Source: Bacteroidetes bacterium SW_9_63_38
Lineage (GTDB): Bacteria; Bacteroidota; Rhodothermia; Rhodothermales; Salinibacteraceae
Length of the DNA stretch: 32,000 nucleotides
Direction of reading: 5' to 3'
NCBI GenBank assembly: GCA_003022435.1
Contig: PXUA01000019.1
Location: 283,427 to 315,426 of the forward strand
Position 1 is the first letter of the stretch, and every line of letters begins with the position of its first letter. Under the pieces are notes generated by a model, which did not search any database, was not told the origin of the DNA, and was given only the letters and a program-made list of their open reading frames with translations. Made by a program: the position numbers and the translations under genes. Of the stretch, positions 4,890 to 30,432 are shown in pieces.

Positions 4890-7697
4890 CTATCCTTCGC
4901 AGTTCTTGCAGCCCAGAATGTCGCGGGAGAAGGCCTGGGCGGCATTCACGCCGTGCTGGTAGTACAGGCTCTTGATGCCCGTTTTCCAGGCTTCGATGTA
5001 CAGACGGTTGACGTCCTTGGCGGGCGTTGCGTTCGGGTCGATGGCCAGGTTCAGCGACTGCGACTGGTCGATGTGGGTTTGCCGGGCGGCCGCCTGATTG
5101 ATGATGGCCATCTGGCTGATTTCGCTGAACGTCTTGAACACCTCCTTCTCGTGCTCGCTGAGAATGTCGAGGTGTTGCACCGAGCCGTCGCGCAGGGCAA
5201 TTTGCTCCCACACCTCGTCGGTGTTTTTGCTCTTCTCGTCCAGCAGGGCTGTCAGGTACGGATTCTTGTAGGTGACCTTCATCTTGGCCCGGTCCTGCAC
5301 GTGGTAGTTGCTCTTGATGGGCTCGATGGACGGGCTCACCTGCCCCAGGATGAAGCTGCTCGACTTGGTGGGGGCCACCGCCATGGTCGTCGCGTTGCGC
5401 CGTCCGCAGCCCTCCAGGACCGGCGGCTCGCCGAACCGGTCGGCCAGCTCCGCAGAGGCCGCGTACGACCGGTCCTTGATCGTCTTGGCGATGTCCGCGC
5501 CGATCGTCGTGGCCTCCGCCGACTCGAACGGGATCATATTCGACTGCAGGTAGGAGTGCCAGCCCAGGATGCCGATCCCGATCGCTCGGTGCCGCTTCGC
5601 AAAGCGAACGGCCCGGTCCATATGGGCCATGCCCTCGGCGCCCTCAATGAACTCTTGCATCACTGCGTCGAGGAAGTAGGTGAGCGTCTCCACCGCGTTG
5701 GTGTGCTTCCACTCGTCGAAGTGGAGGGCATTCATCGACGACAGGCAGCAGACAAAGCTCTCGTCCGGGCCGCATGGAAGCGCGATTTCGGAGCAGTTGA
5801 ACGTCAATACCCCCTGCGAGACAAACACGCTTTCGTCCGTTTCCGTCGTTGGGCAGTAAACGGGCTCGGTGCCTACATGCTCAATCTCAACAACCTCGTA
5901 GGCTTTCTTCGTATTGTCGCGGTAGTGGCGCCTCTCAAGTTCAATGCCCTTTCGGCTGAGAAAGCCAGTATACTTCTCGATTTCCAGGGCGGCGTTTTTG
6001 TTGCCGACGATGAGCCGGTAGCAGTCCTGGACTCTGTATTCGTCGTTCCTGCCTTTTCCGTTTGGAAGCATTTTCGAACCTCCCTCTTGGAGAAGGCGGA
6101 TCTGAGAACTGAGCCCGAGATTGTTGAAAAGAAGCTGAAGCTCCTGGAGAAAGTCGCGGTCGACATCGGCATAATTGATCTGGATCGGGTTGCCCCGGCT
6201 TTCAGACATGTGGACGCTGCCGTCTGCAACAAGCAGACCGCGCACATACGACCACTGCGTGTCCTCGTCGGATTCCCAGATCCATTCAGGTACGGCGCCT
6301 TTTTCGAAACCGAGCTTTGTGAGAGCGGTGGTGCTTAGACGCTTTTTGGCGTCGTTGGAGTGGCTCGCTTGTACGTCGCGGAACGTCGGGACTTCGCGGC
6401 GACGGGTCGCGGTCGTGGTTCCGTGCTGATTCGAGACTGCGTAGGTGTCGAAGCCATGCGTCTCGTAGACGTGATCGAGGGGGGTCTCCACCTCTTCCAC
6501 AATGTCGAAGTCCGACTCCCACACGTCGATCATCTTCCGATCCTCGTGCTGGGTGCCGTCAGATTGCCATAGGCCGAGCAGAAACGCTTCATCCGGCATG
6601 TGACGGTTCCCGAACAAGCCCTTGTTCTTCTGAATGACGATGCGATCCCCAATCTCGAGGTTTTGGGCGTCCTCTCGGTGATATTCGCCCTGGCCGTCAT
6701 AAACGGGAATTCCATGATAGGCCGTCACTTTTTGCTCCAGTCCGTTGTCGAGTGTGATCCGGTACACATCTGCCTCCTCCTCGCGAAGCTTCATCCGTGA
6801 GGCGCTGATCGCCTTTTCTCCGTCGAAGAGCGTAAGGGCGTCTCCTTCTTCGTGCAGGTCCTCCGCCGTCTTGTACCCACGGTCGGTGACGACACGCTGA
6901 TCGCCGGCAAGACAGAGGTTGCTCGCGTGCACGTCGTAGCCCTGGTCCTTGTAGACCTGCGGCCGCCCGTCCTGCACGTTGCCGCGAAAAAGAATGTAGG
7001 GGATGCCGAGGTTCATGCGCTGCTCGATCACCCGCGCCCAGAGGTCGCGCTTTTCGGTGTCGCCGTCAATCATCGCTTCCATCCAGTCGTCGCCCACCAC
7101 GACCCCATACATCATGGTCTGGATGGCGTCGCCCTCGGTTTGGATGTTGAGCCACTCCTCGATGTCGGGGTGTTCGATGTCGATGTAGCCGGCGAAGTGG
7201 CCGCGGCGCGTCTCGCCCTGGCTCACGACATTGATCACCGTGTCGAACAGCTGGGCGAAGGGATAGGTGCCGTTGGAGGTGCCGTTGTTGGTAATGGGGG
7301 CGCCGCGGGGGCGGATGTCGCCGAAGTAGCCGCTGGTGCCGCCGCCCACCTTCGTCATCATGCCCACTTCCGCGTGGGTGTCGAGGATGGAGGTCATCGT
7401 ATCCTCAAAATAGGAGCCGAAGCAGGAGATCGGCAGGCCGCGGTCGAGGCCGAAGTTGGCCCACACGGGACTGGCGAGGCTGTAGTAGCCCCGGCTCATG
7501 TACTCGTAGAAGCGGTCGGCAAAGCCGTCGATCTCGAGGATCGACTCGGCGTGCTCGGCAATCTCGCGCACGCGCTCCGTCGGACCGGTGTCGTCGAGCA
7601 GGTAGCCGCGGCGGAGAAACGTTCGGGCATCGTCATTGAGCCAGGCGAAGTCGGTGGAGGAGTCGGTGTGAGGGGCGGAAAGGGTGTCCGGAGACAT
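4890..7697 (-). CDS. nrdA: ribonucleotide-diphosphate reductase alpha subunit, intein-containing (935-aa precursor, about 562-aa spliced extein, no ATP-cone)
   Basis: The extein junction restores the class I active-site motif ASNL|CSEIALP (SNLCxEI). The C-terminal part matches RNR large subunits, with a terminal CKNCEG Cys pair. An R2 gene lies immediately upstream on the same strand. Confidence 0.95.
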   Translation of the reverse strand: MSPDTLSAPHTDSSTDFAWLNDDARTFLRRGYLLDDTGPTERVREIAEHAESILEIDGFADRFYEYMSRGYYSLASPVWANFGLDRGLPISCFGSYFEDTMTSILDTHAEVGMMTKVGGGTSGYFGDIRPRGAPITNNGTSNGTYPFAQLFDTVINVVSQGETRRGHFAGYIDIEHPDIEEWLNIQTEGDAIQTMMYGVVVGDDWMEAMIDGDTEKRDLWARVIEQRMNLGIPYILFRGNVQDGRPQVYKDQGYDVHASNLCLAGDQRVVTDRGYKTAEDLHEEGDALTLFDGEKAISASRMKLREEEADVYRITLDNGLEQKVTAYHGIPVYDGQGEYHREDAQNLEIGDRIVIQKNKGLFGNRHMPDEAFLLGLWQSDGTQHEDRKMIDVWESDFDIVEEVETPLDHVYETHGFDTYAVSNQHGTTTATRRREVPTFRDVQASHSNDAKKRLSTTALTKLGFEKGAVPEWIWESDEDTQWSYVRGLLVADGSVHMSESRGNPIQINYADVDRDFLQELQLLFNNLGLSSQIRLLQEGGSKMLPNGKGRNDEYRVQDCYRLIVGNKNAALEIEKYTGFLSRKGIELERRHYRDNTKKAYEVVEIEHVGTEPVYCPTTETDESVFVSQGVLTFNCSEIALPCGPDESFVCCLSSMNALHFDEWKHTNAVETLTYFLDAVMQEFIEGAEGMAHMDRAVRFAKRHRAIGIGILGWHSYLQSNMIPFESAEATTIGADIAKTIKDRSYAASAELADRFGEPPVLEGCGRRNATTMAVAPTKSSSFILGQVSPSIEPIKSNYHVQDRAKMKVTYKNPYLTALLDEKSKNTDEVWEQIALRDGSVQHLDILSEHEKEVFKTFSEISQMAIINQAAARQTHIDQSQSLNLAIDPNATPAKDVNRLYIEAWKTGIKSLYYQHGVNAAQAFSRDILGCKNCEG
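5796..6914 (-). mobile_element. intein (373 aa) with LAGLIDADG homing-endonuclease domain, inserted at the RNR catalytic Cys
   Basis: It starts at CLAGDQRVV (Cys262; codon 6914-6912 is aca, reverse complement tgt). It contains a block-B TxxH (VTAYHG) and two dodecapeptide motifs, FLLGLWQSDG and YVRGLLVADG. It ends at VLTFN, followed by the +1 Cys (CSEIALP). G+C is visibly lower than in the flanking extein DNA. Confidence 0.9.
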
Positions 7698-9004: not shown

Positions 9005-9195
9005 GGGTACGCGGTCACCCGACACGATTTCACGTTGCGGACCGCAAACCTCATGACGCGTGAGGTGTCCCCACCGAGGGATCGGAAGGGGACAGGGTCG
9101 CTCTCCGAGCAGGCATTCGGACTGTTACCGTTGCGCGACAGCACCGGAATTCCACCGGACTTTCCCCGAGACGCCGCCCCGATGAGAATCGGGAC
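9005..9195 (-). promoter_or_regulatory. cobalamin (B12) riboswitch aptamer upstream of nrdB-nrdA
   Basis: The - strand reads GGGGAAAGTCCGGTGGAATTCCGGTGCTGTCGCGCAACGGTAACAGT. This matches the conserved core GGGAA..GGTG.AA.TCC..GCTG.C.CGCAACGGTAA. A downstream B12-box-like GTCGGGTGACCGCG maps to + strand 9010-9023. Boundaries are approximate. Confidence 0.8.
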
Positions 9196-28324: not shown

Positions 28325-28482
28325 GAGACGGTGCGATCGCGCGTGGAGTGCAGAGTACGTGTGACGAAGGGACATGGGCCCGTGGAGAGGGTAGGACCCA
28401 GATTTCAGGATCTAATAAACGATGGGCCCGGACTCATATTTTTGCGCCTTGACGGAGATGCTGTGAAAATAGATTCGAGCAT

Positions 28483-28750
28483 TGATGAATGGAGGCGTGG
28501 ATGTGTGGAGGCAGGACCGCTGTGTTCGAATCGTTTTCCCAGTGCCGCGCACAGGGCAATCGTATGTTGAAACGCGTTCGGAAAAGCCGGAGGCACTTTT
28601 GCCGTTCATCGGTCCATCTGCCTGAAATGAATGGACGCCTGGAGGCATGGAGGCAAGAATGCTGTGCGCTACCGCTGTACTCATCATAGAGCAAGATACA
28701 ATTGCACTGGTTCCGCGCAGAGCAGGATGCGATTGACGCAGGGCAATCGT
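28483..28750. repeat. dispersed direct repeats within a 670-bp non-coding island
   Basis: A 41-nt segment at 28483-28523 matches 28625-28665 at about 31/41 positions (ATGAATGGAsGCsTGGA..TGGAGGCA.GA..GCTGTG). CAGGGCAATCGTA occurs at both 28551-28563 and 28738-28750. A 7-bp-stem hairpin GGGAGGC-tcattt-GCCTCCC lies downstream of this interval at 28773-28792. Confidence 0.55.
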
Positions 28751-28993
28751 ACATTACAGCGTTGATTGGAGGCGGGAGGCTCATTTGCCTCCCGGGGATC
28801 CGATTCCCCCGAGAACGAGTGCGAGAATGAGGGAGAGGGAGTGTAGAAGAAGAGTAATCTCGTCCTGAGGAGTTCTTTTTGGGAGCTAAATTGAAGGGGC
28901 GATTGCCTTGAGGCACGGAGCTTCCGAGGATCCATTGGGGACGAATCCGAGTTTGATCATCCCGCTTTTTGTCCCTAAATGTCCAGTTCTGCG

Positions 28994-29233
28994 ATGCCAA
29001 CCTACGAGGCCATTTACGAGAATGGACACCTCGAATGGATCGGGGACGAGCCGACGCCGGGGCGTCATAGGGTACAGGTCCGCGTGCTCGATTCGGAGAC
29101 CAATACGCACGATCGGGACGAGGTGCGACGAGCGTTCGAAAAAGCGCGGGGCGCGTGGGGAACGAACAAGTCCCTCGACGAGGTGGAGGCTGAGATACAG
29201 GAGCTTCGGGATGAGTGGGATCGTTTGAATTGA
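28994..29233 (+). CDS. DUF104 / AF2212-like antitoxin (VapB-type partner of a PIN toxin)
   Basis: N-terminal YEAIYENGHLEWIGDEP...RVQVRVL matches the AIYENGVxKPL signature of the DUF104 family. It is followed 45 nt later by a PIN gene. The start could instead be at 28979. Confidence 0.72.
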   Translation: MPTYEAIYENGHLEWIGDEPTPGRHRVQVRVLDSETNTHDRDEVRRAFEKARGAWGTNKSLDEVEAEIQELRDEWDRLN

Positions 29234-29278
29234 AAGTGACGATTTCCTGATGGTATCCAGACGCGTGAGGTTCGGGGT

Positions 29279-29674
29279 ATGCATCTTTTCGACAGCAACA
29301 TTCTCATCTATCGGCTCAACGATGTCCTGCCGCCCACTGCTTCGAGGCGAGCAGAGAGACGAGCGGCGGAAGGTGCATTCGTTTCCGTCGTGACCCGTAT
29401 CGAGGTGCTTGGATATTCCCACCAAACGCCGGAACAACGGCAGCGTGCGTCTGACTTCCACGAGTTTTTCGATGAGCTTCCACTCCGAGAGCCCGTCGTT
29501 CATTCGGCGATTCAGGTCCGACAGCGTCGGTCGATTCGGCTCGGAGACGCGATTATCGCGGCGACGGCTCTGGTGCACGATTTATCACTCGTAACCCGAA
29601 ATACGGACGACTTTGCGTGGATTGACGACCTTTCTCTCATCAATCCGTTTGACCGTGGCAAGACCGATGAGTGA
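29279..29674 (+). CDS. vapC: PIN-domain ribonuclease toxin
   Basis: MHLFDSNILIY (first acidic residue), TRIEVL, LGDAIIAATAL and LVTRNTDDF together give the classic VapC motif set. Confidence 0.88.
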   Translation: MHLFDSNILIYRLNDVLPPTASRRAERRAAEGAFVSVVTRIEVLGYSHQTPEQRQRASDFHEFFDELPLREPVVHSAIQVRQRRSIRLGDAIIAATALVHDLSLVTRNTDDFAWIDDLSLINPFDRGKTDE

Positions 29675-30350
29675 TTCGCCCCTGCCCGTCGTGGCCGATG
29701 ATCGGGAGGAGGGGAGCGGCGTGCCGGCGACGCTTGCGGGGCGGGACGGTGTGACCCTCACGGTGGATCGCCTCGATGTCGGCGATTATCTCGTGGACGG
29801 CCGGCTCCGCGTGGAGCGCAAGACGCTGCCGGACCTGGCACGGTCGACTGCCGACGGACGGCTGCTCCGGCAGGCGTCGCGGGTGGCCGCTGCTGCGATG
29901 CGGGCGGCGGTGGTGCTGGAGGGCACGACGCGCGATCTGACCCAGACCGACATGTCCCGAGCGGCCCTTCAGGGCGCCCTCATCACGCTCACGCTCAAGA
30001 TGGACCTCTCGCTTCTGCGGGCGAAGACGCCTTCGGAGACGGCGCGGCTCCTCTGCTACGCCGCCGGACAACTGCGGCGGACGCCGGACGGGGGAGCCCC
30101 GCACGCCTCCGGGGGAGCACGGCCGTCGGGCAAGGAACAGACGCAGTTGTACGTGCTGCAGGGGCTGCCCGGCGTGGGGCCGACGCGGGCCCGGCGACTG
30201 CTGGAGGCGCTTGGAAGTGTGGAGGCCGTGATGACGGCGTCGCCGGATGCGTTGAGGGCGGTGGACGGCATCGGTCCGAAGACCGCGGCGTCCGTGCGGT
30301 GGGCGGTCGAGGAGGCGACTGTGGACTATCGGCCCACGCTGTCGTCCTGA
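29667..30350 (+). CDS. short XPF/Mus81-type ERCC4 nuclease with C-terminal (HhH)2 domain
   Basis: ERCC4 catalytic signature VGDYLV...RVERKTLPDL (GDx(n)ERKx3D). The C-terminal tandem helix-hairpin-helix is LQGLPGVGPTRARRLLEALGSVEAVMTASPDALRAVDGIGPKTAA. The ATG at 29667 overlaps the vapC stop (ATGAGTGA, 8-nt overlap). Confidence 0.85.
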   Translation: MSDSPLPVVADDREEGSGVPATLAGRDGVTLTVDRLDVGDYLVDGRLRVERKTLPDLARSTADGRLLRQASRVAAAAMRAAVVLEGTTRDLTQTDMSRAALQGALITLTLKMDLSLLRAKTPSETARLLCYAAGQLRRTPDGGAPHASGGARPSGKEQTQLYVLQGLPGVGPTRARRLLEALGSVEAVMTASPDALRAVDGIGPKTAASVRWAVEEATVDYRPTLSS

Positions 30351-30432
30351 CCTATCTCTTGTTCGTGATGTCTGCATGGATCGGACGGATCGAGGCCTGG
30401 ATGATCGAGTTTTGATTTTGATAACAGCCTCA

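Follow-up and report, generated by a model that had tools for sequence, protein, structure and literature searches.

A VapBC toxin-antitoxin pair abutting a short XPF/Hef-type nuclease gene in Salinibacteraceae, probably as the result of an old deletion

We examined a 32,000-nucleotide stretch of DNA (called the window here) from the chromosome of Bacteroidetes bacterium SW_9_63_38, a member of the Salinibacteraceae (Bacteroidota, Rhodothermia), and observed three tightly packed genes on its plus strand. These are likely an ordinary two-gene VapBC module that was pressed against the gene of a resident XPF/Hef-type repair nuclease by an old deletion, and the two would abut because this deletion took out a gene that once lay between them. 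The first gene is a vapB-like antitoxin gene (28994..29233, 79 aa), the second a vapC PIN-domain toxin gene (29279..29674, 131 aa), and the third a short XPF/Hef-type nuclease gene, referred to below as ERCC4 (29667..30350, 227 aa). The ATG of ERCC4 at 29667 overlaps the TGA of vapC (29672-29674) as ATGAGTGA, and the three open reading frames and the 8-nt overlap described in the first-pass annotation were thus confirmed. The genes are preceded by a low-GC intergenic region of 618 nt (28376..28993), which separates vapB from an ABC-transporter ATPase gene on the minus strand. Two antisense open reading frames (28886-29578 and 29640-30377, both on the minus strand) were treated as high-GC shadow ORFs, since it is the plus-strand genes that show homologues, domains and GC3 bias.

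Identity of the three genes

The antitoxin gene was assigned the start that its orthologues use, which is the second in-frame ATG (28994); the alternative ATG at 28979 would yield 84 aa. The gene lies 45 nt upstream of vapC, and the pair was conserved jointly in at least nine loci, including one in an unrelated context (L104), in keeping with the claim that a small antitoxin gene precedes a PIN toxin. Orthologues of vapB were found beside vapC in L003, L005, L085, L091-093, L103 and L106 (59-80% identity, A3 alignment), and in L104 (53% identity). The gene had previously been labelled DUF104, a label that we could not substantiate. No Pfam or NCBIfam match was seen at E<=0.1, and the PADLOC scan likewise gave no family. 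A PDB profile search returned nothing significant, and neither did Foldseek on the AF2 model, a low-confidence one (pLDDT 66) with three strands followed by two helices. The orthologues in L103 and L091 also had no Pfam match at E<=0.05, and all 18 homologues obtained from a homology search of 5.8 billion proteins were annotated as 'hypothetical', with no Pfam domain. The DUF104/AF2212-like (PF01954) identity was dropped, the sole likeness being a short 'YENG.LEW', although the antitoxin may be a remote DUF104 homologue, given the low confidence of the model. At its C-terminus the antitoxin has a 'GAW...EE(I/V)' motif, which it shares with the VapB of Zetaproteobacteria (see below).

The second gene was confirmed to encode a PIN toxin. 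It matched Pfam PIN (E=3.1e-13) and, in the PDB, VapC 7by2 (E=3.6e-11), and the acidic residues D5, E42, D90 and D110/D111 were present and conserved when it was aligned with its orthologues. The search yielded 942 homologues, and wherever these had a source name, it was that of a VapC family toxin. The toxin is predicted to act as a PIN RNase, with VapB neutralising it and autorepressing the operon.

The third gene matched Pfam ERCC4 (E=7.5e-21), HHH_5 (E=2.9e-13) and HHH_2 (E=3.7e-10). Its ERCC4 nuclease domain spans approximately aa 6-135 (nt 29682-30071) and is followed by a linker and by (HhH)2 at approximately aa 156-215 (nt 30132-30311). The intact GDY...ERK...D motif and the (HhH)2 that had been claimed for this protein were both found. 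The motif, whose conservation on proper alignment had been in question, was retained in an alignment of 22 diverse ERCC4 homologues, in which D11, D12, R13, E14, G39, D40, Y41, E50, R51, K52 and D56 were invariant. The protein thus has what defines the XPF/Mus81/Hef nucleases, namely the GDXn-ERKX3D motif with upstream acidic residues, the (HhH)2 and a restriction-endonuclease-like alpha/beta fold.

The match to the XPF of Aeropyrum pernix (2bgw) was full-length (E=1.7e-26, 34-35% identity), and Foldseek with the AF2 model (pLDDT 86) also recovered A. pernix XPF (E=2e-16). By Foldseek, the nuclease domain superposed on that of Hef with a TM of 0.87-0.88 and an rmsd of 1.9 A (33% identity; TM 0.87 for 1j24), and the (HhH)2 on the HhH2 of Hef (1x2i) with a TM of 0.87 (42% identity). 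The likeness to the short crenarchaeal XPF that had been noted earlier was seen in the shared architecture; however, the protein is not an orthologue, as it scored 84.5 bits with the NCBIfam crenarchaeal Xpf equivalog (NF040956), for which the cut-off is 300. By analogy with archaeal XPF, it is presumably a homodimer that cuts branched DNA (3' flaps, forks) in repair or replication restart.

The vapC-ERCC4 junction and its history

The relatives' loci were found by exact-protein look-ups, and a metagenome scan with the ERCC4 protein gave at least seven loci. The usual order in Salinibacteraceae is PyrdeC-[vapBC]-ridA-ERCC4-[other TA]-MFS-HAD-GATase, and in most of them ridA, or PALP plus ridA, stands between vapBC and ERCC4. 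The ridA gene is truncated in L005, L084 and L085. L001, L096 and L097 have no vapBC pair, and none was detected in L004, with ERCC4 intact in each, and the synteny of ERCC4 with the ABC, HAD and GATase genes held across the relatives. A homologous vapBC pair (53% and 55% identity) was also found beside a TPR gene in a genome of 6.4 Mb, where its 3-kb flanks contain no ERCC4. We suggest that vapBC has long resided in a variable segment upstream of ridA-ERCC4 and was lost in several lineages, while ERCC4 would be a resident, vertically inherited bacterial short XPF/Hef-type endonuclease.

Comparison of proteins and DNA with the orthologous loci placed a deletion junction at the tail and stop of vapC (29654..29674, plus strand). 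Orthologous VapC proteins are 125-126 aa long and end in NPF[E/A][D/E]*, and the VapC of the window carries a non-native C-terminal tail of approximately 5 aa (RGKTDE). On its way into the ERCC4 start, this tail crosses what is left of the ERCC4 leader (AAGACCG), and so creates the overlap at 29667-29674. The ancestral leader has a conserved ...AGACCG-ATG, and only about 8-10 nt of it were kept in the window. We read this tail as the mark of a deletion by which ridA and the stop codon of vapC were lost. A tblastn search of the window (E<=10) found nothing left of the genes for ridA, pyridoxal decarboxylase or MFS, and the deletion was therefore a clean one. We infer that the change ran in this direction in the ancestor of the clade, in which ridA, the end of vapC (one or two codons and the stop codon), and the greater part of the ERCC4 leader would have been deleted, leaving vapC to terminate 5 nt inside ERCC4.

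The overlap had been considered as possibly unique to this strain; it was instead found in five further contigs and is common to a monophyletic clade. The identical junction, as ATGACTGA, occurs in L102, L103, L106 and L108, which together with the window form one clade in the ERCC4 tree. L107, which has the compact arrangement with the same gene coordinates (vapC 5001-5396, ERCC4 from 5389), was not placed in this tree. The junction and the three open reading frames are intact across a nucleotide divergence of approximately 23% (about 77% identity within the clade), and the ATGAnTGA overlap has been kept although the second codon of ERCC4 differs (AGT vs ACT). As a deletion scar explains the overlap, we regard it as a historical by-product of genome compaction and not as the signature of a three-component system.

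The GC3 values were 0.70 for vapB, 0.60 for vapC and 0.85 for ERCC4, with 0.81-0.88 in the flanking genes, and the intergenic region 28376-28993 had a GC content of 0.534. The 'compositional island' reported earlier does exist as the 618-nt intergenic region plus vapBC (0.53-0.70), but ERCC4 lies outside it. The intergenic region, which presumably contains the promoter and operator of vapBC, carries a degenerate duplication with repeats at 28485-28524 and 28627-28666 (142-nt spacing). In the sister clade this region is approximately 305 nt long, and its match to that of the window was limited to a 46-nt stretch. The region was also considered as a mobile element or an RNA, and this was rejected, as nothing in Rfam matched above noise and the rest of the window and the other loci contain no further copies.

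These data bear on the proposal that ERCC4 was acquired horizontally and landed beside a TA pair. The chance adjacency that this proposal contained is closer to what we found, but its polarity is reversed, since vapBC is the compositionally atypical, patchy element. A recent acquisition of ERCC4, for instance from haloarchaea sharing the habitat, next to a pre-existing TA pair would agree with the archaeal origin of the closest curated models (Hef nuclease, 155 bits; crenarchaeal Xpf, 84 bits) and of the nearest solved structures. However, the composition of ERCC4 is native, and its syntenic position (ABC transporter ... HAD/GATase) is constant throughout the Salinibacteraceae. Its nearest relatives are bacterial (50-56% identity), those in Rhodothermales and Bacteroidota being the closest; the NJ tree of ERCC4 covers Salinibacteraceae plus two outgroups only, and the family-wide taxonomic pattern is outside its scope. 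We consider such an acquisition extremely unlikely.

Purifying selection acts on each of the three genes, with dN/dS of approximately 0.10 for vapB (vs L103), approximately 0.10 for vapC, and 0.32 for ERCC4. A likely side effect of the deletion is that ERCC4 came to be transcribed from the vapBC operon, and perhaps it is translationally coupled as well. This could mean that the deletion, by removing the promoter and leader of ERCC4, led to exapted regulation with no mechanistic partnership, ERCC4 being expressed only from a VapB/VapBC-autoregulated promoter and vapBC being kept mainly as a driver or stress-tuner. The lack of any intergenic space for an ERCC4 promoter, the short remnant of the ancestral leader (about 8-10 nt), the stability of the arrangement across the clade, and the repeated loss of vapBC in lineages where ERCC4 retains its own upstream region are all compatible with this. 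However, an internal promoter may lie within vapC, and a selfish addiction module equally predicts the dN/dS of approximately 0.1 seen for vapBC. We judge this explanation very unlikely.

The ERCC4 family in bacteria and its gene neighbours

ERCC4 relatives were found in at least 346 of 185,579 species genomes. The view that the family is uncommon in bacteria was therefore correct as a fraction, but phylogenetically the family is broad. The best 80 ERCC4 loci were all bacterial and came from many phyla, and the 148 clusters obtained (50% identity, E<=1e-30) consisted nearly entirely of proteins of 200-290 aa. A survey table from 2012 gives the family as 'Archaea & Eukaryota' (PMC3424549), an entry that could be cited in favour of the acquisition described above, and which the bacterial members (at least 346 species) contradict. 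Our literature search found no paper on the bacterial short-XPF members, and nothing relevant on bacterial XPF/ERCC4 in TA or defence.

We surveyed the gene neighbourhoods for a recurrent linkage of ERCC4 to PIN or TA genes, and no family-wide linkage was observed. The neighbours were heterogeneous and mainly housekeeping genes, the largest neighbour cluster being present in 6 of 83 loci. Immediately upstream on the same strand were RidA (4), RNase_T (4) and PIN (3), and then DnaJ, tRNA synthetase, RRF and others; downstream were HAGH (5), argG (2), Phd/YefM (2) and others. The three loci with PIN immediately upstream (out of 71) were all from Zetaproteobacteria, where another vapBC lies 2-11 nt upstream of ERCC4 in three of six loci. 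The VapC of these loci belongs to the same subfamily as that of the window (approximately 27% identity), and the N-terminus of the antitoxin is different. In the zetaproteobacterium L082, tyrS directly adjoins ERCC4. On the rough assumption that PIN genes make up 0.5-1% of all genes, two independent adjacencies with PIN upstream in approximately 40-80 lineages are mildly above expectation (p roughly 0.02-0.2, subject to the same assumption).

Some further features of the neighbourhoods were seen. A PIN gene lies convergently downstream of ERCC4 in L044, and some loci have other TA pairs beside ERCC4. ERCC3_RAD25_C had two matches among the downstream ORFs, which were not relocated in the 18 candidate ORFs scanned or by a motif search.

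The three genes had been proposed as a possible three-component unit of a new kind, serving as a TA or in anti-phage defence. We found no support for this, since ERCC4 persists where vapBC is missing and vapBC occurs where ERCC4 is missing. In a true functional module, whether a tripartite TA or an anti-phage system, VapBC would sense stress or infection, and the nuclease would be a second, DNA-directed effector or a repair factor for surviving the toxin, delivered on release of autorepression or by translational coupling. The conservation of the 8-nt overlap and of intact open reading frames in a clade that has diverged to approximately 77% nucleotide identity can be counted for such a module, as can the purifying selection on all three genes and the linkage between vapBC and the ERCC4 locus that many Salinibacteraceae show. 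The ATGAnTGA conservation is also compatible with selection for coupled expression, and the insertion of vapBC directly upstream of ERCC4 in Zetaproteobacteria was an independent event.

However, ERCC4 overwhelmingly occurs with no PIN gene, its immediate PIN neighbours being confined to one class. It is intact in the lineages that have no vapBC, and adjoins tyrS directly in one of the zetaproteobacteria. In most Salinibacteraceae the pair and the nuclease gene are separated by ridA or by PALP plus ridA, and the homologous vapBC elsewhere stands alone. The overlap itself is accounted for by the deletion scar. No PADLOC model matched at the locus and no phage homologue was found, and the flanking genes (ABC transporter, HAD hydrolase, GATase and protease) include none for defence, so that a defence-island context is also lacking. 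A module of this kind is very unlikely.

A small chance of functional coupling is left, because the overlap is clade-wide and a separate vapBC was inserted upstream of ERCC4 in Zetaproteobacteria. There is a slim chance that an XPF/Hef-type nuclease has become wired into a VapBC operon in this clade, and independently in some Zetaproteobacteria. If so, degradation of the antitoxin (under stress or phage attack) would set free the nuclease along with the RNase toxin, and the three genes would be a working unit, whether as a DNA effector triggered by the TA pair or as a repair function coupled to it.

On the preferred reading of a deletion, the locus has little import as a TA or defence discovery, as it is a standard VapBC pair pushed against its neighbour, and it cautions that a gene overlap does not by itself make a functional module. 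The wider interest lies in the short XPF/Hef-type nucleases, which form a broad and conserved family in bacteria that seems to be uncharacterised and could reveal a new flap- or fork-processing activity. ERCC4 expression could be under TA autoregulation in the clade of the window, which would then be a natural experiment on a repair nuclease that has been deprived of its leader and relies on a TA operon for its expression.

Comparison with known systems

The short XPF of crenarchaea (A. pernix 2bgw/2bhn and Sulfolobus XPF) shares with the third gene the ERCC4-linker-(HhH)2 layout, a length of approximately 220 aa and the lack of a helicase domain, and both have an intact GDXnERKX3D motif as well as the acidic residues (DxRE) upstream of it. 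Unlike these proteins, the one described here has a bacterial host. Its tail does not resemble a PIP box and has no obvious clamp-binding motif, ending in ...DYRPTLSS with a pLDDT below 50; the bacterial family has a conserved C-terminal tail of its own (W212...E216...Y221). To our knowledge, PCNA is absent from bacteria. Going by the NCBIfam scores, the protein is nearer to the C-terminal half of Hef, which gave 155 bits where the crenarchaeal Xpf model gave 84. The euryarchaeal Hef (P. furiosus 1j22-1j25, 1x2i) was the best curated profile match, with Hef residues 571-776 covered. However, the SF2 helicase half of Hef is wholly missing, and the 155 bits compare with an equivalog cut-off of 610.

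Type II VapBC systems (the 7by2 and 5k8j chains named 'Ribonuclease VapC'; FitAB) likewise consist of a small antitoxin followed by a PIN toxin of approximately 130 aa. The pair in the window has the same acidic quartet, co-inheritance, patchy distribution and atypical composition. It differs from them in the N-terminal domain of the antitoxin, which has no match to DUF104/AF2212-like, AbrB, RHH or Phd, and in its toxin gene, which has no native stop codon and ends inside the downstream nuclease gene.

Tripartite TA systems include the chaperone-assisted TAC/HigBA-SecB-like systems, the ParDE/PasABC-type systems and three-gene TAs that contain a regulator. In those known, the third component is consistently inherited along with the TA pair, and its target is the antitoxin or the toxin. 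The window resembles them in having three co-directional and tightly packed genes, with the antitoxin-toxin pair first. Here, by contrast, the third gene is mostly found where there is no such pair, and the pair is also found on its own.

The three genes and their products

We observed three ORFs one after another in the window (28979-30350, + strand). The first, the vapB-like gene (28979/28994-29233, +), encodes 79 aa from its second ATG (28994), the start used by its orthologues. The second, vapC (29279-29674, +), encodes 131 aa with a PIN domain (Pfam, E=3.1e-13). Its best solved relatives were VapC toxins (7by2, E=3.6e-11), and the acidic residues D5, E42, D90 and D110/111 were found in the alignment. 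The third gene, ERCC4 (29667-30350, +), encodes a 227-aa protein with an ERCC4 domain (E=7.5e-21) and a tandem HhH (HHH_5, E=2.9e-13), which aligned over its full length with the XPF of Aeropyrum pernix (2bgw, E=1.7e-26). The AlphaFold model (pLDDT 86) also matched A. pernix XPF (Foldseek, E=2e-16), and it resembled Pyrococcus Hef in both the nuclease domain (TM 0.87, 1.9 A) and the HhH2 domain (TM 0.87). Across 22 diverse homologues D11, D12, R13, E14, G39, D40, Y41, E50, R51, K52 and D56 were invariant, establishing that the ERCC4 catalytic signature is intact. The first-pass annotation of the second and third genes, as a PIN toxin and a short ERCC4-(HhH)2 nuclease of crenarchaeal-XPF architecture with a conserved catalytic motif, was borne out. 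The window carries a VapBC-type pair together with an XPF/Hef-type nuclease with its catalytic residues in place. By analogy with their families, VapC would be an RNase restrained by VapB, which would also repress the operon, and the ERCC4 protein would be a structure-specific endonuclease that works as a homodimer on flaps or forks during repair or replication restart.

Past the (HhH)2 region, the ERCC4 protein has a tail (aa 212-221) in which W212 is invariant, and E216 and Y221 nearly so, across the bacterial family. The tail was modelled with low AlphaFold confidence, and may be a partner-binding motif in place of the archaeal PCNA-binding tail.

The first gene had been labelled DUF104, and this label was not reproduced by any method. 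Pfam and NCBIfam scans of the protein and its orthologues gave no match, all 18 database homologues were unannotated, and nothing significant was returned by a PDB profile search or by Foldseek with the low-confidence model (three strands then two helices). We call it a VapB-type antitoxin because it is co-inherited with vapC and its C-terminal 'GAW...EE(I/V)' motif recurs, being also present in the unrelated VapB of Zetaproteobacteria loci.

Origin of the vapC/ERCC4 overlap

The overlap is present as annotated, the ATG of ERCC4 (29667) and the TGA of vapC (29672-29674) together forming ATGAGTGA. Orthologues of VapC are 125-126 aa long and end in ...NPF(E/A)(D/E), and the VapC of the window ends in ...NPFDRGKTDE. 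The extra codons traverse AAGACCG-ATG, the leader directly 5' of ERCC4, which is conserved in relatives (GAGACCG-ATG or AAGACCG-ATG). In the Salinibacteraceae the locus reads pyridoxal decarboxylase, vapBC (optional), (PALP), ridA, ERCC4, another TA pair (optional, DUF433/DUF5615), MFS, HAD and GATase; no ridA remnant was detectable in the window. The simplest reading is that the overlap arose by a single deletion. It would have begun in the final one or two codons of vapC and ended some 10 nt before ERCC4 begins, taking out ridA together with the stop codon of vapC.

The sequences of L102, L103, L106 and L108 (contigs from several samples) show this junction too, as ATGACTGA, and in L107 the gene coordinates are the same. 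The window and these further contigs share a compact synteny, ABC(-)/vapB/vapC/ERCC4/HAD/GATase, and in the NJ tree of ERCC4 the window and the four junction-bearing contigs form one clade. Hence the overlap is not confined to SW_9_63_38. We read it as a shared derived scar, which has lasted while nucleotide identity fell to about 77%; across this divergence dN/dS (window against L103) was 0.10 for vapB, 0.10 for vapC and 0.32 for ERCC4, indicating purifying selection on all three. The gene anatomy suggests that in this compact clade vapBC and ERCC4 probably share a transcript and may also be coupled in translation, and both would be by-products of the deletion. That the arrangement is instead a purely regulatory exaptation seems unlikely to us.

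The long retention of the junction leaves some room for a true vapB-vapC-ERCC4 functional unit, as do other TA pairs flanking ERCC4 in some loci. However, the two partners are separable. Orthologues of the window pair lie upstream of ridA in six loci (L002, L003, L091-093 and L101; antitoxin 62-79% and VapC 53-81% identical), while L001, L096 and L097 have an intact ERCC4 and no vapBC. ERCC4 is also intact in L004, where tblastn found no vapBC. A homologous vapBC (53% and 55% identity) adjoins a TPR gene in a 6.4-Mb genome, and no ERCC4 lies in its 3-kb flanks. Each partner thus exists without the other, which counts against a functional unit.

In three other loci (L005 4768-4980, L084 312-524, L085 1753-1965) ridA is shortened to its first 73 codons and abuts ERCC4 directly. 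Here the same segment has been eroded a second time, independently. In L084, vapC is missing and part of vapB is left. The DUF433/DUF5615 pair lies convergently downstream of ERCC4 in L091-L095, and HEPN and DUF4926/DUF6883 flank ERCC4 in L003 (3083-5043). The Salinibacteraceae ERCC4 locus appears to be a hot spot for TA pairs.

A compositional island had been taken to support horizontal acquisition. It exists, comprising vapB (28994-29233; GC3 0.70), vapC (29279-29674; GC3 0.60) and the 618-nt non-coding stretch upstream (28376-28993; GC 0.53), but ERCC4 (29667-30350) is not part of it, since its GC3 of 0.85 lies within that of the flanking ABC, HAD and GATase genes (0.81-0.88). This composition and the synteny in relatives speak against a recent horizontal transfer of ERCC4, which we regard as very unlikely, and we favour vapBC as the accessory element of the locus. 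Beyond position 28481 the intergenic stretch has no counterpart in sister-clade loci, whose intergenic is about 305 nt. It contains a degenerate direct duplication (28485-28524 and 28627-28666, 142-nt spacing, 80% identity), and CAGGGCAATCGTA occurs twice in it; no further copies of the stretch were found in the window or the compared loci. Elsewhere in the window (9112-9166, -) we observed an AdoCbl-II (cobalamin) riboswitch aptamer, which scored 44.5 bits (gathering score 36.5) and fits a bacterial chromosome.

The bacterial short-XPF family and its neighbours

The closest relatives of the ERCC4 protein came from MAGs of Salinibacter and Salinivenus (71-72% identity). On this ground, and given the riboswitch, we treat the window as part of a Salinibacteraceae chromosome. 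A word-index search gave 509 matches; relatives with E<=1e-30 formed 148 clusters at 50% identity, nearly all of 200-290 aa. At least 346 GTDB species genomes encode relatives, and the 80 best loci were all bacterial (Rhodothermales, Chromatiaceae, Desulfobacterales, Verrucomicrobiota, Zetaproteobacteria, NC10 and others). The protein is no oddity of the SW_9_63_38 genome. Source annotations read 'ERCC4-type nuclease' or 'ERCC4 domain-containing protein', and our literature search for bacterial ERCC4-(HhH)2 proteins found no characterised member; the family entry in a 2012 superfamily survey is 'Archaea & Eukaryota, no HGT observed' (PMC3424549). Plasmid homologues were all distant (34-39% identity; 152 records, 136 from Pseudomonas) and bore no annotation beyond 'ERCC4 domain-containing protein'; the listed P. 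aeruginosa records are plasmids of 320-410 kb. No phage homologue was found. In Thiocapsa (L042 4968-6881), a 638-aa ORF contains ERCC4, HhH and ArgG domains, continuing in frame with no stop before argininosuccinate synthase; this represents a genuine fusion or else the loss of a stop codon. ORF coordinates were near-identical in Thiocapsa marina and Thiocapsa sp. KS1 (L042, L064), the domains being read in L042 alone.

When neighbours from 83 ERCC4 loci were clustered all against all, no family occurred in more than six. A search of Pfam with 119 candidate ORFs, all on the strand of ERCC4 and ending at most 250 nt upstream of it (71 loci), gave RidA in 4, RNase_T in 4 and PIN in 3, besides DnaJ, tRNA synthetase, RRF, APS kinase and genes of that sort. 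On the downstream side the candidates were just as varied (glyoxalase II 5, argG 2, Phd/YefM 2, others), and PADLOC gave no match. Family-wide linkage to PIN genes was not seen, all three upstream cases (L015, L026, L068) belonging to one class, the Zetaproteobacteria.

In all six Zetaproteobacteria loci tyrS(-) and ERCC4(+) are divergent neighbours. The spacer holds an inserted vapBC pair in those three, unannotated ORFs of 236-279 aa in L025 and L057, and no insert in L082 (96 nt); it is a variable insertion site. This second, independent vapBC directly upstream of ERCC4, like a convergent PIN gene downstream of ERCC4 in L044, would suit a three-gene unit. However, two independent PIN-ERCC4 adjacencies in 40-80 lineages are only mildly unexpected (p about 0.02-0.2, on the rough assumption that PIN genes are 0.5-1% of genes), and TA modules tend to settle in variable intergenic spots. 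We consider such a unit quite unlikely.

In Chromatiaceae, a 205-aa DnaQ-like RNase_T exonuclease (L014 97-711, E=1.3e-30) ends about 30 nt upstream of ERCC4, and the other three RNase_T ORFs (L053, L056, L063) were assigned by identical length and gap. In that family the exonuclease-XPF pair could represent a genuine repair operon. Two ORFs downstream of ERCC4, in an alignment of such neighbours from GTDB loci, matched the C-terminal domain of the ERCC3/RAD25/XPB helicase (best E=5.4e-17), a hint of a pairing for repair.

Together, these observations make it likely that the locus is a VapBC pair beside a repair-type XPF/Hef nuclease, with overlap and co-expression as by-products of a deletion. 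The first-pass annotation was correct as to the genes, but its proposal of a new three-component TA or anti-phage unit over-reaches, the overlap being explained by the deletion. The worth of the locus lies mainly in drawing attention to a neglected bacterial short-XPF family, and in a natural experiment in which a TA operon has captured a repair nuclease. Neither part is of a new kind: one is a VapBC module, the other a bacterial ERCC4-domain nuclease.
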